Virus record (IMG/VR): IMGVR_UViG_3300047403_000169
Span: 1-25,762 of that record
Length of the DNA stretch: 25,762 bases
Direction: 5' to 3' (one strand)
Origin: a virus
Taxonomy: Duplodnaviria; Caudoviricetes
Position numbers and translations under genes: made by a program. Under the pieces are notes generated by a model that saw only the letters and a program-made list of their open reading frames with translations, was not told the origin of the DNA and did no database searches. Each line of letters starts with the position of its first letter. Position 1 is the first letter of the stretch. Positions 8,074-24,414 of this stretch are shown here, one piece after another.

Positions 8074-8751
8074 ATGAATGTGAAACTTATTTCTTATACA
8101 AGACCTTCTGTTGATTTAATGAGTGATGGAATTGGCCTGCCCATCGATCTAATATCGTATTGTGCGCGTGTTTCAAATCCAGCGAATCAACACAATACAG
8201 ATACATCCGAAAAACTTATAAAGTATCTTATAAAAAACAAACATTGGTCGCCATTAGAAATGGTGGATGTTACATTGGAGATTGAGACAACAAGAGATAT
8301 TGCCAGACAAATATTACGTCATAGAAGTTTTACGTTTCAAGAATTTTCACAAAGATACGCAGTCGCAGATTTGGGACACGAATTTCGCGATGCTAGATTA
8401 CAAGATAATAAAAACAGACAAAATAGTATCGAAAATACCGACGAACATCTGAATAATAATTGGCTGAATTATCAACAAAAAGTTTTAGATACGGCGAATG
8501 AAGCATATAATTGGGCTATAAACAATGGTATAGCAAAAGAAGTTGCTCGCGCCGTTTTACCTGAAGGTATGACATTATCGCGAATGTATATGAAAGGAAG
8601 TTTGCGTTCATGGATTCACTACATAGAATTACGTTCTGGCAACGGAACTCAAAAAGAACATAGAGAAATTGCTAAAGAAGCTGCTAAAGTTATATCAGAT
8701 ATATTTCCAACAATAATAAACCTAACAATGGAGACAAATAATGTCAAATAA
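8074..8751 (+). CDS. thyX: Flavin-dependent thymidylate synthase
   Basis: HWSPLE and ThyX motif RHRSFTFQEFSQRY. Confidence 0.96.
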   Translation: MNVKLISYTRPSVDLMSDGIGLPIDLISYCARVSNPANQHNTDTSEKLIKYLIKNKHWSPLEMVDVTLEIETTRDIARQILRHRSFTFQEFSQRYAVADLGHEFRDARLQDNKNRQNSIENTDEHLNNNWLNYQQKVLDTANEAYNWAINNGIAKEVARAVLPEGMTLSRMYMKGSLRSWIHYIELRSGNGTQKEHREIAKEAAKVISDIFPTIINLTMETNNVK

Positions 8752-10054
8752 TTATTTTCCAACACAGTACCAGGAATTTATCCATCTTTCCCGGTATAGC
8801 AGATGGTTGCCAGAAAAGAATCGCCGTGAAATCTGGCCTGAAACTGTTGGAAGATTTTTTGACTTTTTCACAGATCATTTGAAAGAGAAGCATGATTATA
8901 ATCTGAGTAAAGATGAAAGATCGTATCTGGAAGATGCTGTTCTGTCTTTGCGTGTAATGCCATCGATGCGGTGTGTAATGACTGCTGGTGAAGCACTAAA
9001 GCGTGAAAATGTTGCTGGATACAACTGTTCTTATGTTGCTGTCGATAATCCAAGATCATTTGATGAAATTCTATACATTCTGATGAACGGAACTGGAGTT
9101 GGATTTTCAGTTGAACAAAAATATACCGATCAGCTTCCCGTTATCTCAGAAGAATTTCATGATACCGAAACGACTATTCATGTTGCAGATTCGAAACTTG
9201 GTTGGGCAAAAGCATTTAAGGAATTGATTCACCTTCTTTATGGCGGCCAGATTCCCAAGTGGGACATGTCGAAAGTAAGACCAGCCGGCGCACCGTTGAA
9301 AACTTTTGGTGGTCGTGCTTCTGGACCAGAACCACTTGTTGAATTGTTTAAATTCTGCTGCAATACATTCAAACATGCTTCGGGAAGAAAACTAACTTCA
9401 TTAGAGTGCCATGATATTGTTTGTAAGGTGGCTGAAATAGTAGTTGTGGGTGGTGTAAGAAGATCAGCGTTGATTTCACTTTCTGATTTGTCTGACGATA
9501 ATATGAGAATCGCTAAAAGTGGACAATGGTGGGAACAAAATCCACAAAGAGCATTGGCTAATAACTCTTATGTTGCTAATCGGAAACCAGATATCGGCAT
9601 ATTCATGAAAGAATGGCTTGCTCTTTATGAATCGAAATCCGGAGAACGTGGTATTTTTTCCCGAGCAGCTTCAAAAATACAAGCTGGTAAAAGTGGTCGC
9701 AGAAACAATAACTTTGATTTTGGAACGAATCCATGTTGTCTCGTAGGTTCAAGCGAAATCATCACACGCAATTATGGTAAGACTACAATTAAAGAAGTAG
9801 TTGAAATCTTCGACAATGATAAGAATATTCAAGTTCTCGCTTTCAACACTCACACTGATAATATTGAATGGGCACCCATTAAAGCCGCACAGTTGACAAG
9901 ACCAAATGCTGAACTGGTAGAACTTGAGATTGATACTCTGCATGGAGTAAAGACTATCAGATGCACTCCAGATCATCCCGTTTATACCAAAAATAGGGGT
10001 TATGTGAGAGCAGATGAACTTACAGACGATGATGAACTGGTAGTTGCTATCTAA
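8741..10054 (+). CDS. nrdJ: Class II (B12-dependent) ribonucleotide reductase N-part fused to split intein N-half
   Basis: MPSMR, YNCSY, GTGVGFS, GGVRRSA, GTNPC followed by intein start CLVGSSEII. Confidence 0.95.
   Translation: MSNNYFPTQYQEFIHLSRYSRWLPEKNRREIWPETVGRFFDFFTDHLKEKHDYNLSKDERSYLEDAVLSLRVMPSMRCVMTAGEALKRENVAGYNCSYVAVDNPRSFDEILYILMNGTGVGFSVEQKYTDQLPVISEEFHDTETTIHVADSKLGWAKAFKELIHLLYGGQIPKWDMSKVRPAGAPLKTFGGRASGPEPLVELFKFCCNTFKHASGRKLTSLECHDIVCKVAEIVVVGGVRRSALISLSDLSDDNMRIAKSGQWWEQNPQRALANNSYVANRKPDIGIFMKEWLALYESKSGERGIFSRAASKIQAGKSGRRNNNFDFGTNPCCLVGSSEIITRNYGKTTIKEVVEIFDNDKNIQVLAFNTHTDNIEWAPIKAAQLTRPNAELVELEIDTLHGVKTIRCTPDHPVYTKNRGYVRADELTDDDELVVAI
9737..10051 (+). other. Split intein N-fragment (NrdJ-1 type)
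   Basis: C1 after TNPC; block B CTPDHPVY; ends ADELTDDDELVVAI at the stop codon. Confidence 0.93.
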
Positions 10055-10065
10055 AATCGAGATAT

Positions 10066-10073
10066 TATAAATA
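10066..10073 (+). promoter_or_regulatory. T4-type late promoter
   Basis: TATAAATA 30 nt upstream of the endonuclease ATG. Confidence 0.6.
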
Positions 10074-10102
10074 GTATAAGGGTTGGTAGAAAGGATTCTT
10101 AT

Positions 10103-10849
10103 ATGTTTACACATTTCGAAAAGCGACAACTACAAGAGTGGTATACCAATATAAAACAACAAAGACATTCCAGAAACGAATACTCTGGAATGTCTCAAAG
10201 ACAAATCTGGATAAAGGCAAACCCGTGCCCATTGGAACAAAAGATAATTTCTCTATACACTGAAGGTCACGGATTCAAAACACTTGCCAAACATCTTGGA
10301 TTGACATACTCTGTATGTAGAAAATTGTGTATTGATTATATTGGTATAGAACACAGAAAAGGAATGAGTGTTGTCACCGACGCTCTAAGACAGAAAAGGA
10401 GTGATAATGTTAAGGGTGAGAAGTCGCCTTGGTATGATTGGCCACACAAAATGCCACAACTATTATCCAAGAATGGAAAAACGATACAAGGGTATTATAT
10501 AAAGAAAGATGGCAGCAAAGTTTGGTTACGATCTACATATGAGTATATAATGGCCAAATGGTTAGACAAAATCAATGCTGATTGGAAAACAGAAGAAAGA
10601 TGTTATATTCTCTCTAATGGAGAACGATACAGACCGGATTTCTTTATATATGAAAATAATGAAATGAAGACTATAATAGAAACGAAGTCAAGATATTTTA
10701 ACAAGGATAACAGAGAATACAAGTTTCATCTATTCAAGGAAGAATATAAATTGAATTGTATGATTGTAACAGACATAACAAAGTTTACGAATAATACTTA
10801 TCAACAGGAGTTAAAAGAATGGAAGCAAAAACGTATATTGGAAAACTAA
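10103..10849 (+). CDS. Free-standing putative homing endonuclease, PD-(D/E)XK type
   Basis: LRSTYE...YRPDFFI...IIETKS; sits between the two intein halves. Confidence 0.8.
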   Translation: MFTHFEKRQLQEWYTNIKQQRHSRNEYSGMSQRQIWIKANPCPLEQKIISLYTEGHGFKTLAKHLGLTYSVCRKLCIDYIGIEHRKGMSVVTDALRQKRSDNVKGEKSPWYDWPHKMPQLLSKNGKTIQGYYIKKDGSKVWLRSTYEYIMAKWLDKINADWKTEERCYILSNGERYRPDFFIYENNEMKTIIETKSRYFNKDNREYKFHLFKEEYKLNCMIVTDITKFTNNTYQQELKEWKQKRILEN

Positions 10850-10938
10850 AGTCCAGAAAGATTGTATCAAATGAAGATACATATGATATTCAAACATCAA
10901 CTCATAACTTTTTTGCTAATGACATTCTGGTACATAAC
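10819..10938 (+). other. Split intein C-fragment (NrdJ-1 type)
   Basis: Ends His-Asn with +1 Ser. Confidence 0.93.
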
Positions 10939-11880
10939 AGCGAAATCGTTCTTAGAAATCGTGAATTTTGCAATCTGACAGAAGTTGTTGTTAGAAGCAC
11001 CGACACTTTGGAAACTCTAAAGGAAAAAGTGAAGATTGGTACAATCTTTGGTACATTTCAATCGACATTGACAGATTTCAAATATCTTACAAAAAAATGG
11101 AAAGAAAACTGTGATGAAGAAAGATTGCTTGGTGTATCTTTGACTGGAATCATGGATAGTGCGCTAACAAATGGTAAACAGGGTCCGGAAAAACTAAAAG
11201 CTGTTTTAAATGAACTTCGAAAGATTGCGATAGATACAAACAAGATTTGGGCCAAGAAACTTGGGATTAATCAATCCGTTGCTGTGACTTGTGTTAAACC
11301 TAGCGGAACGGTTTCACAATTGGTAGATTCTGGTTCCGGTATTCATGCCAGACATTCACCTTATTATGTTCGGACGGTCAGAGCAGACAAAAAAGACCCA
11401 TTAGCTAAAATGATGGTCGATGCTGGATTTCCAGTTGAAGATGATGTAATGAAACCAAATCATACATATGTGTTTTCATTTCCTATTAAAACTTCTGGTG
11501 ACGCTGTATATCGAAAAGATTTAACAGCTATTCAGCAACTTGAAACCTGGTTGATATATTATCGCGAATGGTGTGAACATAAACCATCAATCACTGTAAC
11601 AGTCCGTGAAGAAGAATGGATGGAAGTTGGTGCTTGGGTATGGAATCATTTTGATGAAATGTCAGGTGTATCATTTCTACCATATTCAGATCATGTTTAT
11701 AAACAAGCGCCTTATCAAGACTGCACAAAAGAAGAATATGAGGCATTAGAAGCAAAGATGCCCAAGAATGTGGATTGGTCGAAGTTGTCTGAATATGAAA
11801 CACGCGATCATACTGCTGGTTCTCAAACAGCCGCATGTTCGGCAGATGGTTCTGGATGTGAGATTGTCGATCTAGTATAA
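10819..11880 (+). CDS. nrdJ: Split intein C-half (40 aa) fused to class II RNR C-part
   Basis: TYDIQTSTHNFFANDILVHN|SEIVL, FCNLTE, TCVKPSGTVSQL, C-terminal redox Cys pair. Confidence 0.95.
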   Translation: MEAKTYIGKLKSRKIVSNEDTYDIQTSTHNFFANDILVHNSEIVLRNREFCNLTEVVVRSTDTLETLKEKVKIGTIFGTFQSTLTDFKYLTKKWKENCDEERLLGVSLTGIMDSALTNGKQGPEKLKAVLNELRKIAIDTNKIWAKKLGINQSVAVTCVKPSGTVSQLVDSGSGIHARHSPYYVRTVRADKKDPLAKMMVDAGFPVEDDVMKPNHTYVFSFPIKTSGDAVYRKDLTAIQQLETWLIYYREWCEHKPSITVTVREEEWMEVGAWVWNHFDEMSGVSFLPYSDHVYKQAPYQDCTKEEYEALEAKMPKNVDWSKLSEYETRDHTAGSQTAACSADGSGCEIVDLV

Positions 11881-14955: not shown

Positions 14956-14984
14956 TTGACTTCTTATGCATTATATTATATAAT
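14956..14984 (+). promoter_or_regulatory. Sigma70 promoter of the solitary QV mini-gene
   Basis: TTGACT-17-TATAAT; ATG at 14991. Confidence 0.8.
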
Positions 14985-14990
14985 GTAGGA

Positions 14991-15185
14991 ATGAAACTCA
15001 AATCAGTCAGTCATCAAGTCTCGGATCAAGTCAGGGATCAAGTCTGGGATCAAGTCTCGGATCAAGTCTATGATCAAGTCGGGGATCAAGTCTGGAATCA
15101 AGTCTGGAATCAAGTCTGGAATCAAGTCGGGGATCAAGTCTTGGATCAAGTCTTAGATATCATCAATAAAAATAAAACCCAATGA
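14991..15185 (+). CDS. Solitary xxQV-repeat mini-protein (64 aa, 12 units)
   Basis: MKLKSV-(xxQV)12[10 protein letters not shown]; same start as the array genes. Confidence 0.75.
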   Translation: MKLKSVSHQVSDQVRDQVWDQVSDQVYDQVGDQVWNQVWNQVWNQVGDQVLDQVLDIINKNKTQ

Positions 15186-15239
15186 AATCAATCACTTAGG
15201 CTAAGTCATTGAAATCATTGATTTTTTAGTTGTTGACTT
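15145..15239 (+). repeat. 95-bp direct repeat, copy 1 (mini-gene tail, palindrome and -35 box)
   Basis: Identical to 18308-18402. Confidence 0.9.
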
Positions 15240-15261
15240 GACTATATAATAATGATACAAT
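15233..15261 (+). promoter_or_regulatory. Sigma70 promoter of the partner gene
   Basis: TTGACT-17-TACAAT with TGn extension. Confidence 0.7.
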
Positions 15262-15318
15262 ACACATACAAAATCGGAATGGTTCTGATTTTTCATAAAG
15301 AAATAGGATGAATATAAC

Positions 15319-15672
15319 ATGAAGACTTTTGATCGAATGGCAGCGCAGGGTGACTTTATTATCATGCGAATTGCCGATCTTCCTGCTAATCTTGTGCCGC
15401 TTGCTACTGAGAATGGGAAGTATGTTGTCGCCCACTCGGAAACTGGTCATAATCACGTTATGACTATGGATCGTGTTAAGGGTTACAAGCGTAAGGAAAT
15501 CACGGACGATTCCAAGTTGTTTGAGTTGTTCTTTGCCGTTGAGGCACCTACGGAGATTGAGCATCTTCGGTCGTTTGATACCCATGAGACTATTCAGGTC
15601 AAGCCTGGTAACTATGTGGTTAAGCGGCAGCGGGAGTATGTCGCTGAAGGTTTCCGTAAGGCAGCCGACTAA
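15319..15672 (+). CDS. His-rich hypothetical protein, typical neighbour of DUF6745 genes
   Basis: QGDFII...AHSETGHNH...EH...THE...PGNYVVKRQREY motif set. Confidence 0.75.
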   Translation: MKTFDRMAAQGDFIIMRIADLPANLVPLATENGKYVVAHSETGHNHVMTMDRVKGYKRKEITDDSKLFELFFAVEAPTEIEHLRSFDTHETIQVKPGNYVVKRQREYVAEGFRKAAD

Positions 15673-15678
15673 TTCGTA

Positions 15679-15792
15679 TAACTCATTGATTTTATTGATA
15701 AAGAAAAACGTCAATAATTTCAATGGGTTATCCTAACTAACTGAAATCATTGATTTCTTTTCTCTTGCTTTAATATCCACCTGTGTTATTAT
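15679..15792 (+). promoter_or_regulatory. Palindromic cassette plus promoter of the DUF6745-like gene
   Basis: Inverted repeat 15679-15730; TTGCTT (15765) and TGn-TATTAT (15787). Confidence 0.6.
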
Positions 15793-15828
15793 ACACAGAC
15801 TAAACAGAAACGCCAAACGGAGTTTATT

Positions 15829-16689
15829 ATGATTAAAGAATTGACTAAGGTTCAGCAGGATCAGATTCCTGTTTATCGTGACAAGTGGCTTGATATCGGT
15901 CTTTCAACGGATCGTATTGATCGTGATAAGGCAATCGAGTCTGTAAAGAAGGCTTATAGGCTGGTTGGCCTAAAGGAACCGACTAAGTTTCATTTTGTTG
16001 ATTCCCCCACGGCTGCTATTAAATATATTCGGTCAATCGATTCCTCATTGACTGTTGATGATATTCTCGGTTCGACCATCTATGGCGCACATGACGCTGG
16101 TTGGCTTTCGTTCTATGAATACTTTAAAGAAGTTTGTGATATCAATGACTGTAACAAGCTTGATGGTCTATTTGAGTTGGCCAAGAATGTTGGTTGGACA
16201 AACGTATATGAGGACTTAGTCGTTTTCCAGGAAAAGCCTATCGCTATTCGGTTTGACGATCAGAAGCGGCTCCACTGTGAGACTGGTCCGGCTGTTGAAT
16301 ATGCTGATGGTTTTGGTTTTTATTCGTGGCATGGTGTAGTCATTCCGGCCGAGTGGATTACCAAGCGGTCTGAGTTGTCTCCCAAGACTGCACTCTCTTG
16401 GTCCAATATTGAGCAGCGCCGTGCGGCCTGTGAAATTGTGACTTGGGCTCGTATTCTTCGCGAGTTGAATGCTAAGATTATTGACGAGGATGCCGATCCT
16501 ATGATTGGTACGCTTGTCGAGGTTACTCTGCCCGATCTTGGTAAGGAGAAGTTTCTAAAGGTTCTTTGTGGTACCGGTCGTGAGTTTGCGATTCCTGTGC
16601 CGCCGGAAATGAAGACTGCGTTGGATGCCAATGCTTGGACTTTCGATCTTGATGGTAACACCCTTCGAAAGCTTGAAGTCCGAACCTGA
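15829..16689 (+). CDS. DUF6745-like protein without an internal repeat tract
   Basis: DKW...LST...DSP...YGAHDAGWLSFY...GW...EKP...RLHCETGPAVEYADGFGFYSWHGV...NIEQRR...CGTGREFAIPVPP; GGAG SD. Confidence 0.75.
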   Translation: MIKELTKVQQDQIPVYRDKWLDIGLSTDRIDRDKAIESVKKAYRLVGLKEPTKFHFVDSPTAAIKYIRSIDSSLTVDDILGSTIYGAHDAGWLSFYEYFKEVCDINDCNKLDGLFELAKNVGWTNVYEDLVVFQEKPIAIRFDDQKRLHCETGPAVEYADGFGFYSWHGVVIPAEWITKRSELSPKTALSWSNIEQRRAACEIVTWARILRELNAKIIDEDADPMIGTLVEVTLPDLGKEKFLKVLCGTGREFAIPVPPEMKTALDANAWTFDLDGNTLRKLEVRT

Positions 16690-16723
16690 TTAAAACTTGA
16701 TATTTTTAAACTCTATGTAAACT

Positions 16724-16757
16724 GGGAGGAGAGTTTTAAACTCTTCTCCCTTTTTTT
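16724..16757 (+). terminator. Intrinsic terminator
   Basis: GGGAGGAGAGTT..AACTCTTCTCCC followed by T7. Confidence 0.8.
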
Positions 16758-16765
16758 GAATTGCG

Positions 16766-16993
16766 ATGAAACTCAAATCAGTCGAGGCTCAAGTCTCGGA
16801 TCAAGTCAGGGATCAAGTCGAGGCTCAAGTCTCGGATCAAGTCCGGGATCAAGTCTGGCATCAAGTCTGGGGTCAAGTCGGGGCTCAAGTCAGGGATCAA
16901 GTCTGGCGTCAAGTCGGGGATCAAGTCTGGGATCAAGTCGAGGCTCAAGTCAGGAATCAAGTCTCGATTCAAGTCAGGACTATACATCGATGA
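16766..16993 (+). CDS. xxQV mini-protein A1 (75 aa)
   Basis: MKLKSV-(xxQV)16-RTIHR. Confidence 0.65.
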
Positions 16994-17169
16994 AACTCAA
17001 ATCAGTCAGGACTCAAGTCAGGGATCAAGTCTCGGATCAAGTCTCGGATCAAGTCGGGCGTCAAGTCTATGCTCAAGTCGGGAATCAAGTCTGGGATCAA
17101 GTCTGGAATCAAGTCAGGATTCAAGTCGGGGATCAAATCTGGCGTCAAGTCAAGACTCTACATCAATGA
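16990..17169 (+). CDS. xxQV mini-protein A2 (59 aa)
   Basis: ATGA overlap; 12 units; KTLHQ tail. Confidence 0.65.
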
Positions 17170-17405
17170 AACTCAAATCAGTCAAGAATCAAGTCTGGCA
17201 TCAAGTCGCGGCTCAAGTCTGGCGTCAAGTCGAGGCTCAAGTCTATGCTCAAGTCAGGAATCAAGTCTGGGATCAAGTCAGGGATCAAGTCAGGGATCAA
17301 ATCTGGAATCAAGTCTGGCATCAAGTCAAGAATCAAGTCAGGGATCAAGTCAGGGATCAAGTCAGGGATCAAATCTATGATCAAGTCAGGGCTATACATC
17401 GATGA
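17166..17405 (+). CDS. xxQV mini-protein A3 (79 aa)
   Basis: ATGA overlap; 17 units; RAIHR tail. Confidence 0.65.
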   Translation: MKLKSVKNQVWHQVAAQVWRQVEAQVYAQVRNQVWDQVRDQVRDQIWNQVWHQVKNQVRDQVRDQVRDQIYDQVRAIHR

Positions 17406-17641
17406 AACTCAAATCAGTCAAGGCTCAAGTTGAGGATCAAGTCGGGGATCAAGTCTGGGCTCAAGTCTCGAATCAAATCGGGATTCAAGTCTGGAATCAA
17501 GTCTCGGATCAAGTCAGGGCTCAAGTCTGGGATCAAGTCTGGAATCAAGTCTCGGATCAAGTCTGGAATCAAGTCAGGGATCAAGTCAGGGATCAAGTCA
17601 GGGATCAAATCTGGCGTCAAGTCAAGACTCTACATCAATGA
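17402..17641 (+). CDS. xxQV mini-protein A4 (79 aa)
   Basis: ATGA overlap; 17 units; KTLHQ tail. Confidence 0.65.
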   Translation: MKLKSVKAQVEDQVGDQVWAQVSNQIGIQVWNQVSDQVRAQVWDQVWNQVSDQVWNQVRDQVRDQVRDQIWRQVKTLHQ

Positions 17642-17733
17642 AACTCAAATCAGTCAAGAATCAAGTCAGGGATCAAGTCAGGGATCAAGTCAGGGATCAA
17701 ATCTGGCGTCAAGTCAAGACTCTACATCAATGA
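17638..17733 (+). CDS. xxQV mini-protein A5 (31 aa)
   Basis: ATGA overlap; 5 units; KTLHQ tail. Confidence 0.6.
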   Translation: MKLKSVKNQVRDQVRDQVRDQIWRQVKTLHQ

Positions 17734-17945
17734 AACTCAAATCAGTCAAGAATCAAGTCTGGCATCAAGTCGGGGCTCAAGTCTGGGATCAAGTCTCGGA
17801 TCAAGTCTCGGATCAAGTCTCGGATCAAGTCTGGCGTCAAGTCAGGGATCAAGTCAAGTCTCAAGTCTCGGATCAAGTCTTGCGTCAAGTCTGGGATCAA
17901 GTCTGGATTCAAGTCAGGAATCGAGTCAGGACTATACATCGATGA
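17730..17945 (+). CDS. xxQV mini-protein A6 (71 aa)
   Basis: ATGA overlap; 15 units; RTIHR tail. Confidence 0.65.
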   Translation: MKLKSVKNQVWHQVGAQVWDQVSDQVSDQVSDQVWRQVRDQVKSQVSDQVLRQVWDQVWIQVRNRVRTIHR

Positions 17946-18121
17946 AACTCAAATCAGTCAGGACTCAAGTCAGGGATCAAGTCTCGGATCAAGTCTCGGA
18001 TCAAGTCTGGGATCAAGTCGGGCATCAAATCTGGAATCAAGTCTCGGATCAAGTCAGGGTTCAAGTCTATACTCAAGTCTGGCATCAAGTCTGGGTTCAA
18101 GTCAAGACTCTACATCAATGA
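17942..18121 (+). CDS. xxQV mini-protein A7 (59 aa)
   Basis: ATGA overlap; 12 units; KTLHQ tail. Confidence 0.65.
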   Translation: MKLKSVRTQVRDQVSDQVSDQVWDQVGHQIWNQVSDQVRVQVYTQVWHQVWVQVKTLHQ

Positions 18122-18348
18122 AACTCAAATCAGTCAAGAATCAAGTCTCGGATCAAGTCTGGAATCAAGTCAGGGATCAAGTCAGGGATCAAGTCAGGGA
18201 TCAAATCTGGCGTCAAGTCTGGGCTCAAGTCTCGAATCAAATCGGGATTCAAATCTGGAATCAAGTCAGGGATCAAGTCAGGGATCAAATCTGGAATCAA
18301 GTCTGGCATCAAGTCTTAGATATCATCAATAAAAATAAAACCCAATGA
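18118..18348 (+). CDS. xxQV mini-protein A8 (76 aa)
   Basis: ATGA overlap; 15 units; [10 protein letters not shown] tail. Confidence 0.65.
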
Positions 18349-18402
18349 AATCAATCACTTAGGCTAAGTCATTGAAATCATTGATTTTTTAGTTGTTGAC
18401 TT
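18308..18402 (+). repeat. 95-bp direct repeat, copy 2
   Basis: Identical to 15145-15239; its TTGACT pairs with GATAAT at 18419. Confidence 0.9.
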
Positions 18403-18430
18403 ATTGTATCGGATATGAGATAATCTTTCC

Positions 18431-19010: not shown

Positions 19011-19116
19011 TTGACAGTGACATAAAATTAAGATAGAATGATATATATATACTAAAGAGACACGAAAATTTTTTGGAAAAAAATATGTTGACAATTGGTA
19101 CAAAATATAATACACT
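19011..19116 (+). promoter_or_regulatory. Tandem sigma70 promoters upstream of the ncRNA/tRNA region
   Basis: TTGACA(19011)-17-TAGAAT and TTGACA(19088)-17-TACACT. Confidence 0.7.
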
Positions 19117-19122
19117 AAGAAA

Positions 19123-19720
19123 TCATAAAGAATGGCTGCGCTCATCGTTTGCCATCGATATGAAGGCTTGTTAGTAGGTAGTATATCTACATTTGTCTAC
19201 TGACAAGCCCGCCTCCAACAAGGCGGGTTTTTTGTTGAAAAGTGGCGGCATCCAGATAGTATCTGAAATGCCTTATGCGGAACGAGACTGCGGCACCACT
19301 ATAAAAAAGTCGAATGGTCGGCACCGAGGATGGATTTGCTGCTACGGTAGCAATGAAAAATACGGAGAAATTGGTAAAAAGCATATCATAGCAATATGGT
19401 ATGCTTACAATAGAGAATTTCCGGGTCTCAACATAAGTGCATTTGGGTGAGAAAGGACACTTGCTTTCATCCGTGACACAATCGGCCAAATGTAATTATG
19501 GTTCTGGTTATCAGTGGTGATATCGGACCTAGTTGTGAGGGAATGATATACAATCTATAACGCACCTCGACCGCGTCGAGGGGGTCCCGGAAATTTTCTA
19601 TTGTAAGCATATTATAGAGGCACGGTCGGGTCTGATACATGATACATAAGAAAGAGACCATCAGATGGCTGTCATGAGTGTGACTTACTCGCCGAGAACG
19701 TGAAAAGCGCGGCCACAGAG
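19123..19720 (+). ncRNA. Large structured non-coding RNA candidate (~590 nt)
   Basis: End-to-end helix 19133-19142/19706-19715; long internal helices with G-U pairs; GNRA and UNCG tetraloops; no credible ORF. Confidence 0.65.
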
Positions 19721-19734
19721 TCAATCAATCGTGT

Positions 19735-19803
19735 CGCGGGAAGCAAAAGTTGCCGTTTGGCCTCATACGTCAAATATAGCTGGGGCAGTACCAGCTCCCG
19801 CTA
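19735..19803 (+). tRNA. tRNA-Met (CAT), initiator-like, atypical
   Basis: GCGGGA/TCCCGC acceptor with unpaired C1; anticodon loop CTCATAC; non-canonical D and T loops. Confidence 0.55.
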
Positions 19804-19809
19804 CTTAAT

Positions 19810-19885
19810 GTCCCCATCGTCTAGTGGCCAAGGATAGAAGGCTTTCAATCTTTTGACGCCGGTTCGAATCCGGCTGGGGACACCA
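19810..19885 (+). tRNA. tRNA-Glu (TTC)
   Basis: Cloverleaf, GTTCGAATC, CCA end. Confidence 0.9.
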
Positions 19886-22349: not shown

Positions 22350-22492
22350 TAATAAAATCAAGCACTTGGAAATATGGCTAAGTCATTGATATTATTACTA
22401 AAAATAAAACTCAATGAAATCAAGCACTTAGGCTAAGTCATTGATATTATTGATTTCTTAGTTCTTGCTTTAGATTCCAGTTGATGTATAAT
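22350..22492 (+). promoter_or_regulatory. Doubled palindromic cassette plus sigma70 promoter of QV array 2
   Basis: AAATCAAGCACTT..GGCTAAGTCATTGATATTATT twice; TTGCTT(22465)-16-TATAAT; ATG at 22500. Confidence 0.75.
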
Positions 22493-22499
22493 AGTCAAC

Positions 22500-22703
22500 A
22501 TGAAACTCAAATCAGTCTGGCATCAAGTCAGGGATCAAGTCTGGGATCAAGTCAGGGATCAAGTCTCGGATCAAGTCAGGGATCAAGTCGGGGATCAAGT
22601 CTGGGATCAAGTCTCGGATCAAGTCTCGGATCAAATCTATGATCAAGTCAGGAATCAAGTCAGGAATCAAATCTATGATCAAGTCAGGGCTATACATCGA
22701 TGA
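22500..22703 (+). CDS. xxQV mini-protein B1 (67 aa)
   Basis: 14 units; RAIHR tail. Confidence 0.7.
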   Translation: MKLKSVWHQVRDQVWDQVRDQVSDQVRDQVGDQVWDQVSDQVSDQIYDQVRNQVRNQIYDQVRAIHR

Positions 22704-22915
22704 AACTCAAATCAGTCAAGGCTCAAGTTGAGGATCAAGTCTGGGATCAAGTCTGGGATCAAGCCTCGGATCAAGTCTATGCTCAAGTCTGGGATCAAGT
22801 CTGGCATCAAGTCTGGGCTCAAATCGGGGCTCAAGTCTGGCTTCAAGTCAGGCGTCAAGTCTTGGTTCAAGTCGAGGCTCAAGTCAGGCATCAAGTCTGG
22901 ACTATACATCGATGA
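22700..22915 (+). CDS. xxQV mini-protein B2 (71 aa)
   Basis: ATGA overlap; 15 units; WTIHR tail. Confidence 0.7.
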
Positions 22916-23127
22916 AACTCAAATCAGTCTGGCGTCAAGTCTCGGATCAAGCCTGGGCTCAAGTCTATGATCAAGTCTGGGATCAAGTCTCGGATCAAGT
23001 CAGGAATCAAGTCGGACGTCAAGTCTCGAATCAAGTCAGGAATCAAGTCGGACGTCAAGTCTCGAATCAAGTCAGGAATCAAGTCAGGGATCAAGTCTGG
23101 CGTCAAGTCAGGACTATACATCGATGA
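22912..23127 (+). CDS. xxQV mini-protein B3 (71 aa)
   Basis: ATGA overlap; 15 units; RTIHR tail. Confidence 0.7.
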
Positions 23128-23315
23128 AACTCAAATCAGTCAGGAGTCAAGTCAGGAGTCAAGTCTCGATTCAAGTCTGGAATCAAGTCTGGCGTCAAGT
23201 CTCGGATCAAGTCAGGGCTCAAGTCTCGAATCAAGTCTGGGATCAAGTCAGGGCTCAAGTCTGGGATCAAGTCTATGCTCAAGTCAGGCATCAAGTCAGG
23301 ACTATACATCAATGA
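23124..23315 (+). CDS. xxQV mini-protein B4 (63 aa)
   Basis: ATGA overlap; 13 units; RTIHQ tail. Confidence 0.7.
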   Translation: MKLKSVRSQVRSQVSIQVWNQVWRQVSDQVRAQVSNQVWDQVRAQVWDQVYAQVRHQVRTIHQ

Positions 23316-23503
23316 AACTCAAATCAGTCTGGCGTCAAGTCGGGCATCAAATCTGGAATCAAGTCGGGTCTCAAGTCTCGAATCAAGTCTGGCGTCAAGT
23401 CAGGGATCAAGTCTGGCGTCAAGTCGGGGATCAAGTCTGGGCTCAAGTCACGGCTCAAGTCTGGACTCGAGTCTGGGATCAAGTCAGGACTATACATCAA
23501 TGA
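23312..23503 (+). CDS. xxQV mini-protein B5 (63 aa)
   Basis: ATGA overlap; 13 units; RTIHQ tail. Confidence 0.7.
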
Positions 23504-23667
23504 AACTCAAATCAGTCTATGCTCAAGTCTCGGATCAAGTCTGGACTCAAGTCTCGAATCAAGTCTGGGCTCAAGTCTCGGATCAAGTCTCGGATCAAGT
23601 CTATGATCAAGTCTCGAATCAAGTCTGGGATCAAGTCTGGCGTCAAGTCAGGACTATACATCGATGA
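23500..23667 (+). CDS. xxQV mini-protein B6 (55 aa)
   Basis: ATGA overlap; 11 units; RTIHR tail. Confidence 0.7.
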
Positions 23668-23855
23668 AACTCAAATCAGTCAGGACTCAAGTCGAGGCTC
23701 AAGTCTGGGATCAAATCTGGGATCAAGTCGAGGCTCAAGTCTGGGATCAAGTCTGGGATCAAGTCTGGGATCAAGTCAGGGCTCAAGTCGAGGCTCAAGT
23801 CTGGGCTCAAATCAGGGCTCAAGTCTGGAATCGAGTCAGGACTATACATCAATGA
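23664..23855 (+). CDS. xxQV mini-protein B7 (63 aa)
   Basis: ATGA overlap; 13 units; RTIHQ tail. Confidence 0.7.
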   Translation: MKLKSVRTQVEAQVWDQIWDQVEAQVWDQVWDQVWDQVRAQVEAQVWAQIRAQVWNRVRTIHQ

Positions 23856-24103
23856 AACTCAAATCAGTCAGGCGTCAAGTCGAGGCTAAAGTCAGGCGTC
23901 AAGTCGAGGCTCAAGTCTGGCGTCAAGTCGAGGCTCAAGTCTGGGCTCAAATCAGGGCTCAAGTCTGGGATCAAGTCAGGGCTCAAGTCTGGGCTCAAGT
24001 CTTGGTTCAAGTCAGGCGTCAAGTCAGGAATCAAGTCTGGCGTCAAGTCTGGACTCAAGTCTGGGATCAAGTCTGGCGTCAAGTCAGGACTATACATCGA
24101 TGA
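23852..24103 (+). CDS. xxQV mini-protein B8 (83 aa)
   Basis: ATGA overlap; 18 units; RTIHR tail. Confidence 0.7.
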
Positions 24104-24414
24104 AACTCAAATCAGTCAGGCATTCAGTCTATGATCAAGTCTTGGATCAAGTCTGGGATCAAGTCTGGGATCAAGTCTCGATTCAAGTCAGGAATCAAGT
24201 CTGGGATCAAGTCTGGGATCAAGTCTGGGTTCAAGTCTCGAATCAAGTCTGGGATCAAGTCTGGCGTCAAGTCAGGGATCAAGTCTGGGATCAAGTCTGG
24301 GATCAAGCCTCGGATCAAGTCGGGGATCAAGTCTCGGATCAAGTCTTGGTTCAAGTCTGGAATCAAGTCAGGCGTCAAGTCAGGGATCAAGTCTATGCTC
24401 AAGTCCGGAACTAA
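24100..24414 (+). CDS. xxQV mini-protein B9 (104 aa)
   Basis: ATGA overlap; 24 units; ends RN*. Confidence 0.7.

Follow-up and report, generated by a model that had tools for sequence, protein, structure and literature searches.

The window analysed here is one entire virus contig of 25,762 bases, a genome fragment (Caudoviricetes; IMG/VR record IMGVR_UViG_3300047403_000169). It encodes a DUF6745 protein of 286 amino acids (aa) without a repeat tract (15829-16689, plus strand), together with 18 open reading frames (ORFs) built from tetrapeptide units of the type xxQV. In contrast to the fused members of the family, in which such a tract is part of the DUF6745 protein itself, the scaffold here is devoid of it, and the tract is present as 18 separate coupled genes. 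There is good support for this split architecture, a genuine and widely occurring variant among the variable tetrapeptide-repeat phage proteins that seems not to have been published. A literature search, which did not extend to subscription papers, returned no paper naming DUF6745, PF20530, phrog_31813, or phrog_27831, and topic searches of the same coverage found nothing on a split layout of scaffold and repeat. DUF6745 constitutes a very large, unstudied family of phages and prophages, and the split form naturally separates its constant part from the variable one.

The scaffold matches Pfam PF20530 (DUF6745) with an E-value of 1.4e-32 over residues 82-278, scoring 113.2 bits against a gathering cut-off of 27 and covering profile positions 7-199 of 206. 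The sequence-only reading of this DNA had described its Asp-Ser-Pro and GAHDAGW motifs as joined by a short linker, and indeed only 25 non-repetitive residues, with no period-4 tract, lie between D58-S59-P60 and G86-A-H-D-A-G-W92. In fused homologues sharing 46-49% identity with the window protein (xxQV units in L072 and L082, xxSV in L083 and L084, xxAV in L081), the tract is inserted exactly between the Ser-Pro motif with its helix and the GxH[DE] motif, and it occupies the same place in 31 full-length long homologues; the expected QV-type tract at the linker position is therefore found. The proposal that the window protein lacks what its homologues possess holds for these fused relatives, but repeat-less proteins are by no means uncommon. 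The best 120 of 837 matches are all 285-306 aa long, and the best 150 of 11,510 representatives (clusters at 50% identity, E-value up to 0.001) comprise 52 repeat-less proteins, 36 with clear period-4 tracts, 58 with other or degenerate inserts, and 4 partial ones. DUF6745 proteins with an internal tract (PF20530; phrog_31813) share the scaffold, the histidine-rich (His-rich) neighbour, the repeat unit, and its register with the window; examples are gp38 of the Mycobacterium prophage prophiGD102-1 (xxQL), MW202476.1 (xxSL), and L072, L082, and L135 (xxQV). In Microcystis phage Ma-LMM01, gp174 is a DUF6745 protein with a non-repetitive insert, encoded alongside gp175.

Other variations of the tract were observed within the family. 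Tracts of the AAxS type, resembling that of mycobacteriophage Tweety gp54, are present inside DUF6745 proteins at L255 and L258, and a separate gene with an AAxS tract is located near a fused xxQL DUF6745 gene (L233:229-984). At L231 and L259, frame shifts inside the tract of a fused gene result in separate N- and C-terminal ORFs, possibly the first step of fission, or else phase variation or an assembly error.

Exactly 18 ORFs of the window open with MKLKSV followed by xxQV units in frame; they are 31-104 aa long and all different. As the sequence-only reading had noticed, they lie on both sides of the DUF6745 gene, all on the plus strand: mini-ORF 1, with 64 aa and 12 units, at 14991-15185; eight genes of 31-79 aa (array 2) at 16766-18348; and nine genes of 55-104 aa within the transfer RNA (tRNA) cluster at 22500-24414. 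All 15 internal junctions of the two arrays are overlaps of four nucleotides (nt), in which stop and start codons share the sequence ATGA. Together the genes contain 256 units of 57 kinds, with Gln retained in 252 and Val or Ile in 253 of them, while the net charge of the predicted mini-proteins ranges from -4 to +12. In other phages, the Gln-Val pair is kept by different codons (CAA or CAG; GTC, GTT, or GTG), and the length of 251 distinct free ORFs is similar, with a median of 63 aa and a 10th-90th percentile range of 53-78 aa. Pfam matches of the mini-proteins to DUF4816, EnY2, Cas2, and GvpQ, the last two weak, were rejected as compositional.

Repeat-less and fused DUF6745 genes are distributed in a complementary manner with respect to free repeat ORFs. 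Among 80 viral loci picked only by scaffold homology, free xxQV ORFs accompany, within the DNA fetched, 54 of the 74 repeat-less genes, none of the 5 insert-bearing ones, and not the single partial one. A preference of repeat-less homologues for free repeat genes had been predicted, and their common absence from such loci would have spoken against the split; the preference is what the counts show. Genuine free ORFs are absent beside all fused genes of the repeat-selected loci (0/49 for xxQV, 0/20 for xxQL, and 0/43 for xxSV; 0/112 in total), this control being confined to the fetched flanks of up to 6 kilobases (kb) per side and often less. Automatic flags of free ORFs at the fused loci L088 and L358 turned out to be opposite-strand readings and were rejected. 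De-replication at 90% leaves free ORFs in 46 of 49 repeat-less versus 0 of 44 insert-bearing clusters, in a pool of 148 proteins with both ends present that includes repeat-selected loci. Among 34 loci from bacterial genomes, the only full-length repeat-less gene (L226) is the one with free xxQV ORFs. At L118:4920-7483, two repeat-less DUF6745 paralogues flank two long free xxQV ORFs.

When the 21 records lacking free ORFs nearby were searched over their full length, distant arrays came to light in 4, including the sole complete record, and degenerate yet intact ORFs of 55-75 aa adjoin the scaffold at L049, L053, and L068. Selection by the repeat itself yielded 104 xxQV loci, of which 49 are fused, 24 combine a repeat-less gene with free ORFs, and 31 are without DUF6745 in the stretch; DUF6745 was found in 11 of the 30 records behind the latter, five being fused where the repeat matched. 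DUF6745 is missing from two near-complete records, namely G005, where the tract resides in another protein, and G013. The fused form accounts for 20 of 25 xxQL loci and 43 of 127 xxSV loci selected by repeat.

A quick IQ-TREE phylogeny of 92 tract-free cores places the repeat-less label on it with only 4 changes, 3 of them forced by strong branches, compared to a mean of 31.2 after shuffling. The repeat-less lineages comprise a clade of 45 rows, the window among them, and in addition L071, L090, and L128, the last on a long branch. By this tree, the repeat-less state arose at least three to four times. L071, which is repeat-less and was selected by scaffold only, is sister to the fused L235 (Shimodaira-Hasegawa-like approximate likelihood-ratio test, SH-aLRT, 98), and xxQL units occur in both. 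Additional scaffolds lacking the tract, accompanied by free arrays of the xxSV or xxQL type, occur at L280, the L298 group, L328, and L332; in the L298 group and at L328, free xxSV arrays adjoin scaffolds whose best fused matches (L333 and L352, respectively) also carry xxSV. Free ORFs and best fused match are of one type in four of the seven lineages compared (main clade, L071, L298 group, and L328), with a few main-clade rows also having a non-QV best fused match. This agreement fits a repeated fission of fused genes, without being decisive.

The gene upstream of the scaffold encodes a His-rich protein of 117 aa with the QGD/HSETGHxH signature (15319-15672, plus strand). It is the QGD...GHNH...RQREY gene, of the kind (QGD...GHxH...RQREY) that the sequence-only reading named as a neighbour of many DUF6745-family proteins, and it matches phrog_27831 with an E-value of 3e-08. 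The association is confirmed, as a member of this partner family adjoins 73 of the 80 viral and 32 of the 34 bacterial-genome loci. Across an alignment of 40 sequences, G11, E41, H46, H89, G97, and D117 are invariant, and H44 and H82 nearly so; possibly, these residues form part of a metal site. The partner gave no match in Pfam, NCBIfam, PADLOC, or PDB sequences, and the scaffold likewise matched none of the hidden Markov models (HMMs) of PADLOC defence systems and NCBIfam.

The AlphaFold2 model of the window scaffold has a predicted local distance difference test (pLDDT) score of 91.6 and contains two short predicted helices within the linker (residues 61-85), at 60-70 and 76-82. In the model of the fused L135, the tract is a single continuous helix (residues 86-180, pLDDT 50-78) that stops just ahead of the conserved motif. 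Helix 76-82 of the window protein might thus be a remnant of the tract's end; judging from the models, it could leave a putative docking site free or else fill it in cis. Fold searches of both models revealed nothing clear in the PDB, which neither establishes the fold as new nor points to a function. For the scaffold, the best Foldseek E-value was 0.19, and the best Z-scores obtained with VIA were 3.9 (root-mean-square deviation 4.0, 62 aligned residues) and 4.1 (2.7, 49 aligned residues). Searches of BFVD with both models returned DUF6745 relatives only, and the ESM Atlas yielded only unnamed or DUF6745 clusters, among them one cyanobacterial cluster that combines DUF6745 with leucine-rich repeat (LRR) domains.

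We give about an even chance to the explanation that the window encodes a split DUF6745 system, in which helical mini-proteins dock on scaffold and partner as interchangeable parts that vary its specificity. The sequence-only reading, which proposed one constant scaffold for up to 18 interchangeable repeat modules, is thereby partly supported. Observed are the layout of the genes, the place of the tract in fused homologues, the complementary distribution, the repeated origin, variable codons free of stops, and a partner and scaffold that hardly differ between contigs in which the repeat regions vary; that the tract is a single long helix is a prediction. The component steps of the explanation differ in probability. 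The tract would have been detached from the scaffold gene, an origin by fission being very probable for the mini-genes, and then amplified and diversified via duplication and recombination among its 12-base-pair (bp) units, which is likely. The peptides would probably be made early in infection through coupled translation, to judge from the sequence signals around their starts, although with somewhat less assurance. Their binding to the core of DUF6745 and partner as exchangeable helices, i.e., docking in trans, seems slightly better than an even bet. Exchangeable helices could vary the specificity of the scaffold, whose target would probably be some function of the host or of a competitor at an early stage of infection. 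Counter-defence or host takeover as its role is a tentative suggestion, made by analogy only because Tweety gp54, the sole functional precedent found, is not homologous. Similarly speculative is the general picture of a variable repeat helix repeatedly converted into a trans-acting library, whose core would take any of tens of helical adaptors diversified by recombination and so hold a combinatorial repertoire for counter-defence or host takeover without a reverse transcriptase. If true, a single genome would possess many specificities, by a route different from both diversity-generating retroelements and the tuning of repeat number in Tweety-type proteins, and there would be an explanation for why many aquatic T4-like phages carry long arrays of tiny ORFan genes.

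Several observations weigh against the docking explanation. Because 45 of the 48 repeat-less rows of the tree form one clade, most of the co-occurrence reflects shared descent. The type of the free ORFs differs from that of the best fused match in three of the seven lineages compared (L090, L128, and L197), and five of the seven were found via the repeat itself. No xxQV pattern exists in 15 of the 21 repeat-less records without local free ORFs (fragments 2-73% complete), and two more have one weak match; G013, 96% complete, has free ORFs at a contig end and no DUF6745, and is a real exception. The insertion slot is permissive, as the 58 of 150 representatives with non-repetitive or degenerate inserts indicate, and the scaffold retains a short helix of its own (76-82) where the fused tract ends. 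An intrinsic terminator-like hairpin (16724-16758, plus strand) parts DUF6745 from array 2, the first gene of which is without an evident ribosome-binding site. The avoidance of stops among the variable first codons (0 of 256 versus 20.2 expected from the column frequencies, TA- codons always being finished as TAT) speaks for a coding constraint, but the statistic overstates independence, since the units have been copied from one another. Finally, the xxSV tract is also inside a second scaffold family at 33 loci (L287, L307, L312, L319, L362, L363, and others).

In this second family, the tract is flanked by an LLKxW-like helix and an LWxxGxVPSFDG motif, and the N-terminal domain is of at least two kinds. 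Neither DUF6745 nor a QGD partner was present in the DNA fetched for its 33 loci, the family is absent from the window, and its homology to DUF6745 is unsupported (hhalign probability 0.3%). An xxQV tract also occurs in a non-DUF6745 protein of a complete 38-kb genome (L120:5802-6551, minus strand); a stop lies between the two parts of this protein, possibly a recoded stop or a split gene, and it sits among other repeat-protein genes.

The strongest rival, in itself unlikely, is that the tract-derived mini-proteins act without the scaffold, for instance by binding or titrating the target of the tract as free helices or by bundling with one another, with the shortened scaffold working alone and the linkage reflecting descent. 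The residual helix 76-82 and the permissive slot are consistent with it, as are tracts in an unrelated scaffold, the AAxS tracts common to DUF6745 (L255 and L258) and Tweety-type proteins, the distance of 6 kb at which the nine-gene array lies with its own promoter-like site, and the free ORFs of G013 with no scaffold detected. An independent effector, however, need not avoid fused genes, beside which free ORFs never occur in the repeat-selected control; moreover, the separately derived repeat-less lineages all retain free ORFs, including L071, which was found by scaffold alone. It is rather improbable that good expression is limited to the copies next to promoters (14991 and 22500), the downstream ones being mainly a reservoir from which 12-bp units pass into the former by recombination. 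Such an arrangement, which is compatible with docking, would suit the TATAAT boxes 6-7 nt ahead of the ATG of both copies, the start of array 2 behind a terminator and without a ribosome-binding site, and a contig of a related strain (X19 record 12) that has different units in mini-ORF 1; yet the exact ATGA overlaps at every internal junction and the intact reading frame of every copy are what coupled translation predicts.

It is very unlikely that a 12-bp repeat expanded into these arrays in a neutral or selfish manner, encoding functionless peptides. Nearly all units use one codon per amino acid, a sign of copying, all three plus-strand frames are mostly open inside the arrays, and these adjoin repeated stem-loop/promoter elements of a kind reported to drive shuffling (PMC2839356). 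Neutral expansion fails to explain the avoidance of stops in the QV frame, the ATG that opens this frame in all 18 genes, the similar length of free ORFs, the retention of Gln-Val by different codons across phages, and the degenerate but intact ORFs at the L049, L053, and L068 scaffolds. That the arrays arose through misassembly of a fused repeat gene is extremely improbable: public contigs do break within repeats, so that copy number and order rest on this contig alone, but single contigs cross the repeat-less linker in runs X1, X2, X3, X7, X8, and X13, the 18 genes are distinct with start and tail sequences of their own, and the same layout recurs in dozens of other contigs.

Among the closest known systems is gp54 of mycobacteriophage Tweety (with Che8 gp57 and PMC gp51), whose tract likewise consists of 12-bp units, each specifying a tetrapeptide in which two residues are fixed and two vary. 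The variation affects the first and second codon positions (PMC2884959), and changes in repeat number are reported to tune counter-defence, overcoming Phrann gp29/gp30 (PMC9262239). Unlike the units of the window, those of gp54 are of the AAxx type and internal to a single gene, and no library of free mini-genes is mentioned in the part of its description at hand. A homology was rejected, as gp54 showed no match to the HMMs of DUF6745 and partner at E-values up to 100, which leaves it as an analogue. The promoter/stem-loop cassettes (PeSL) of the T4-type phages RB49 and phi1 are reported to drive gene shuffling (PMC2839356). The window resembles them in layout only, with a repeated stem-loop and a sigma70-like promoter among non-essential genes of a T4-like phage; such cassettes account for the shuffling of genes, not for a repeat library. 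Diversity-generating retroelements also combine a constant scaffold with a hypervariable binding part. In contrast to these, the adenines of the CAA codon are invariant in the units and diversity is stored as many genes; no reverse transcriptase was found among the 20 window proteins scanned, the contig being a genome fragment.

Promoter-like sites occur at the beginning of two of the repeat regions. A sigma70-like promoter on the plus strand (TTGACT-17-TATAAT, 14956-14984, 11/12 consensus positions) has its end 6 nt upstream of the mini-ORF 1 ATG, a start that would be leaderless-like, and a plus-strand TATAAT lies 7 nt ahead of the first ATG at 22500, with a stem-loop element upstream. As both sites stand so close to the ATGs (14991 and 22500), they suggest leaderless early transcripts. 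The whole promoter scan exceeds chance only a little (29 matches versus 21.6, standard deviation 4.6), for which reason only matches of 10-12 out of 12 beside start codons were used. Ahead of the partner gene, a stem-loop is combined with a sigma70-like promoter in a PeSL-like layout (15165-15261, plus strand). The core of the element recurs at 18344-18375 and 22413-22444, and a diverged copy is found around 15685-15775. Three matches to it in the window compare with 0 in 100 shuffles, its z-scores are -2.5, -2.6, and -2.9, and only -0.8 for the copy at 22400, and three times it stands before promoter-like sites. An identical tail, stem-loop, and -35 box are found with mini-ORF 1 (at 15148-15240) and with the last gene of array 2 (at 18310-18403), and because of this a local duplication around partner and scaffold seems to have produced the region 14991-18400.

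DNA nearly identical to the window was found chiefly in freshwater, estuary, and wastewater runs. Over the approximately 1.6 kb of partner and scaffold, four contigs from four studies differ from it by 0 (X1), 20 (X3), 19 (X7), and 21 (X8) bases. Unlike these two genes, the repeat regions fall into many variant contigs, where summed read depth does not equal copy number. Contigs from RNA libraries of one study, derived from a related strain, cover parts of mini-ORF 1, the partner, and DUF6745, as well as one array-type junction; they show neither strand nor level and may be DNA, and were not used as evidence of expression.

The source phage is T4-like. A T4-type primase is encoded on the contig, with best cultured matches in Synechococcus phages at about 48%, and the 20 scanned proteins also include thymidylate synthase, endolysin, and RuvC-like genes; 25 tRNA genes are present. 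By eye, a ribonucleotide reductase-like gene (8741-11880) appears split over the ORFs 8741-10054 and 10819-11880, with intein-like ends, and an endonuclease-like ORF of 248 aa (10103-10849) stands between the two. Ahead of the first tRNA gene, about 750 bases without a long ORF (19050-19810) contain promoter-like sites and a hairpin (19205-19230) and are partly covered by contigs from both RNA-library runs; this region may hold a non-coding RNA.
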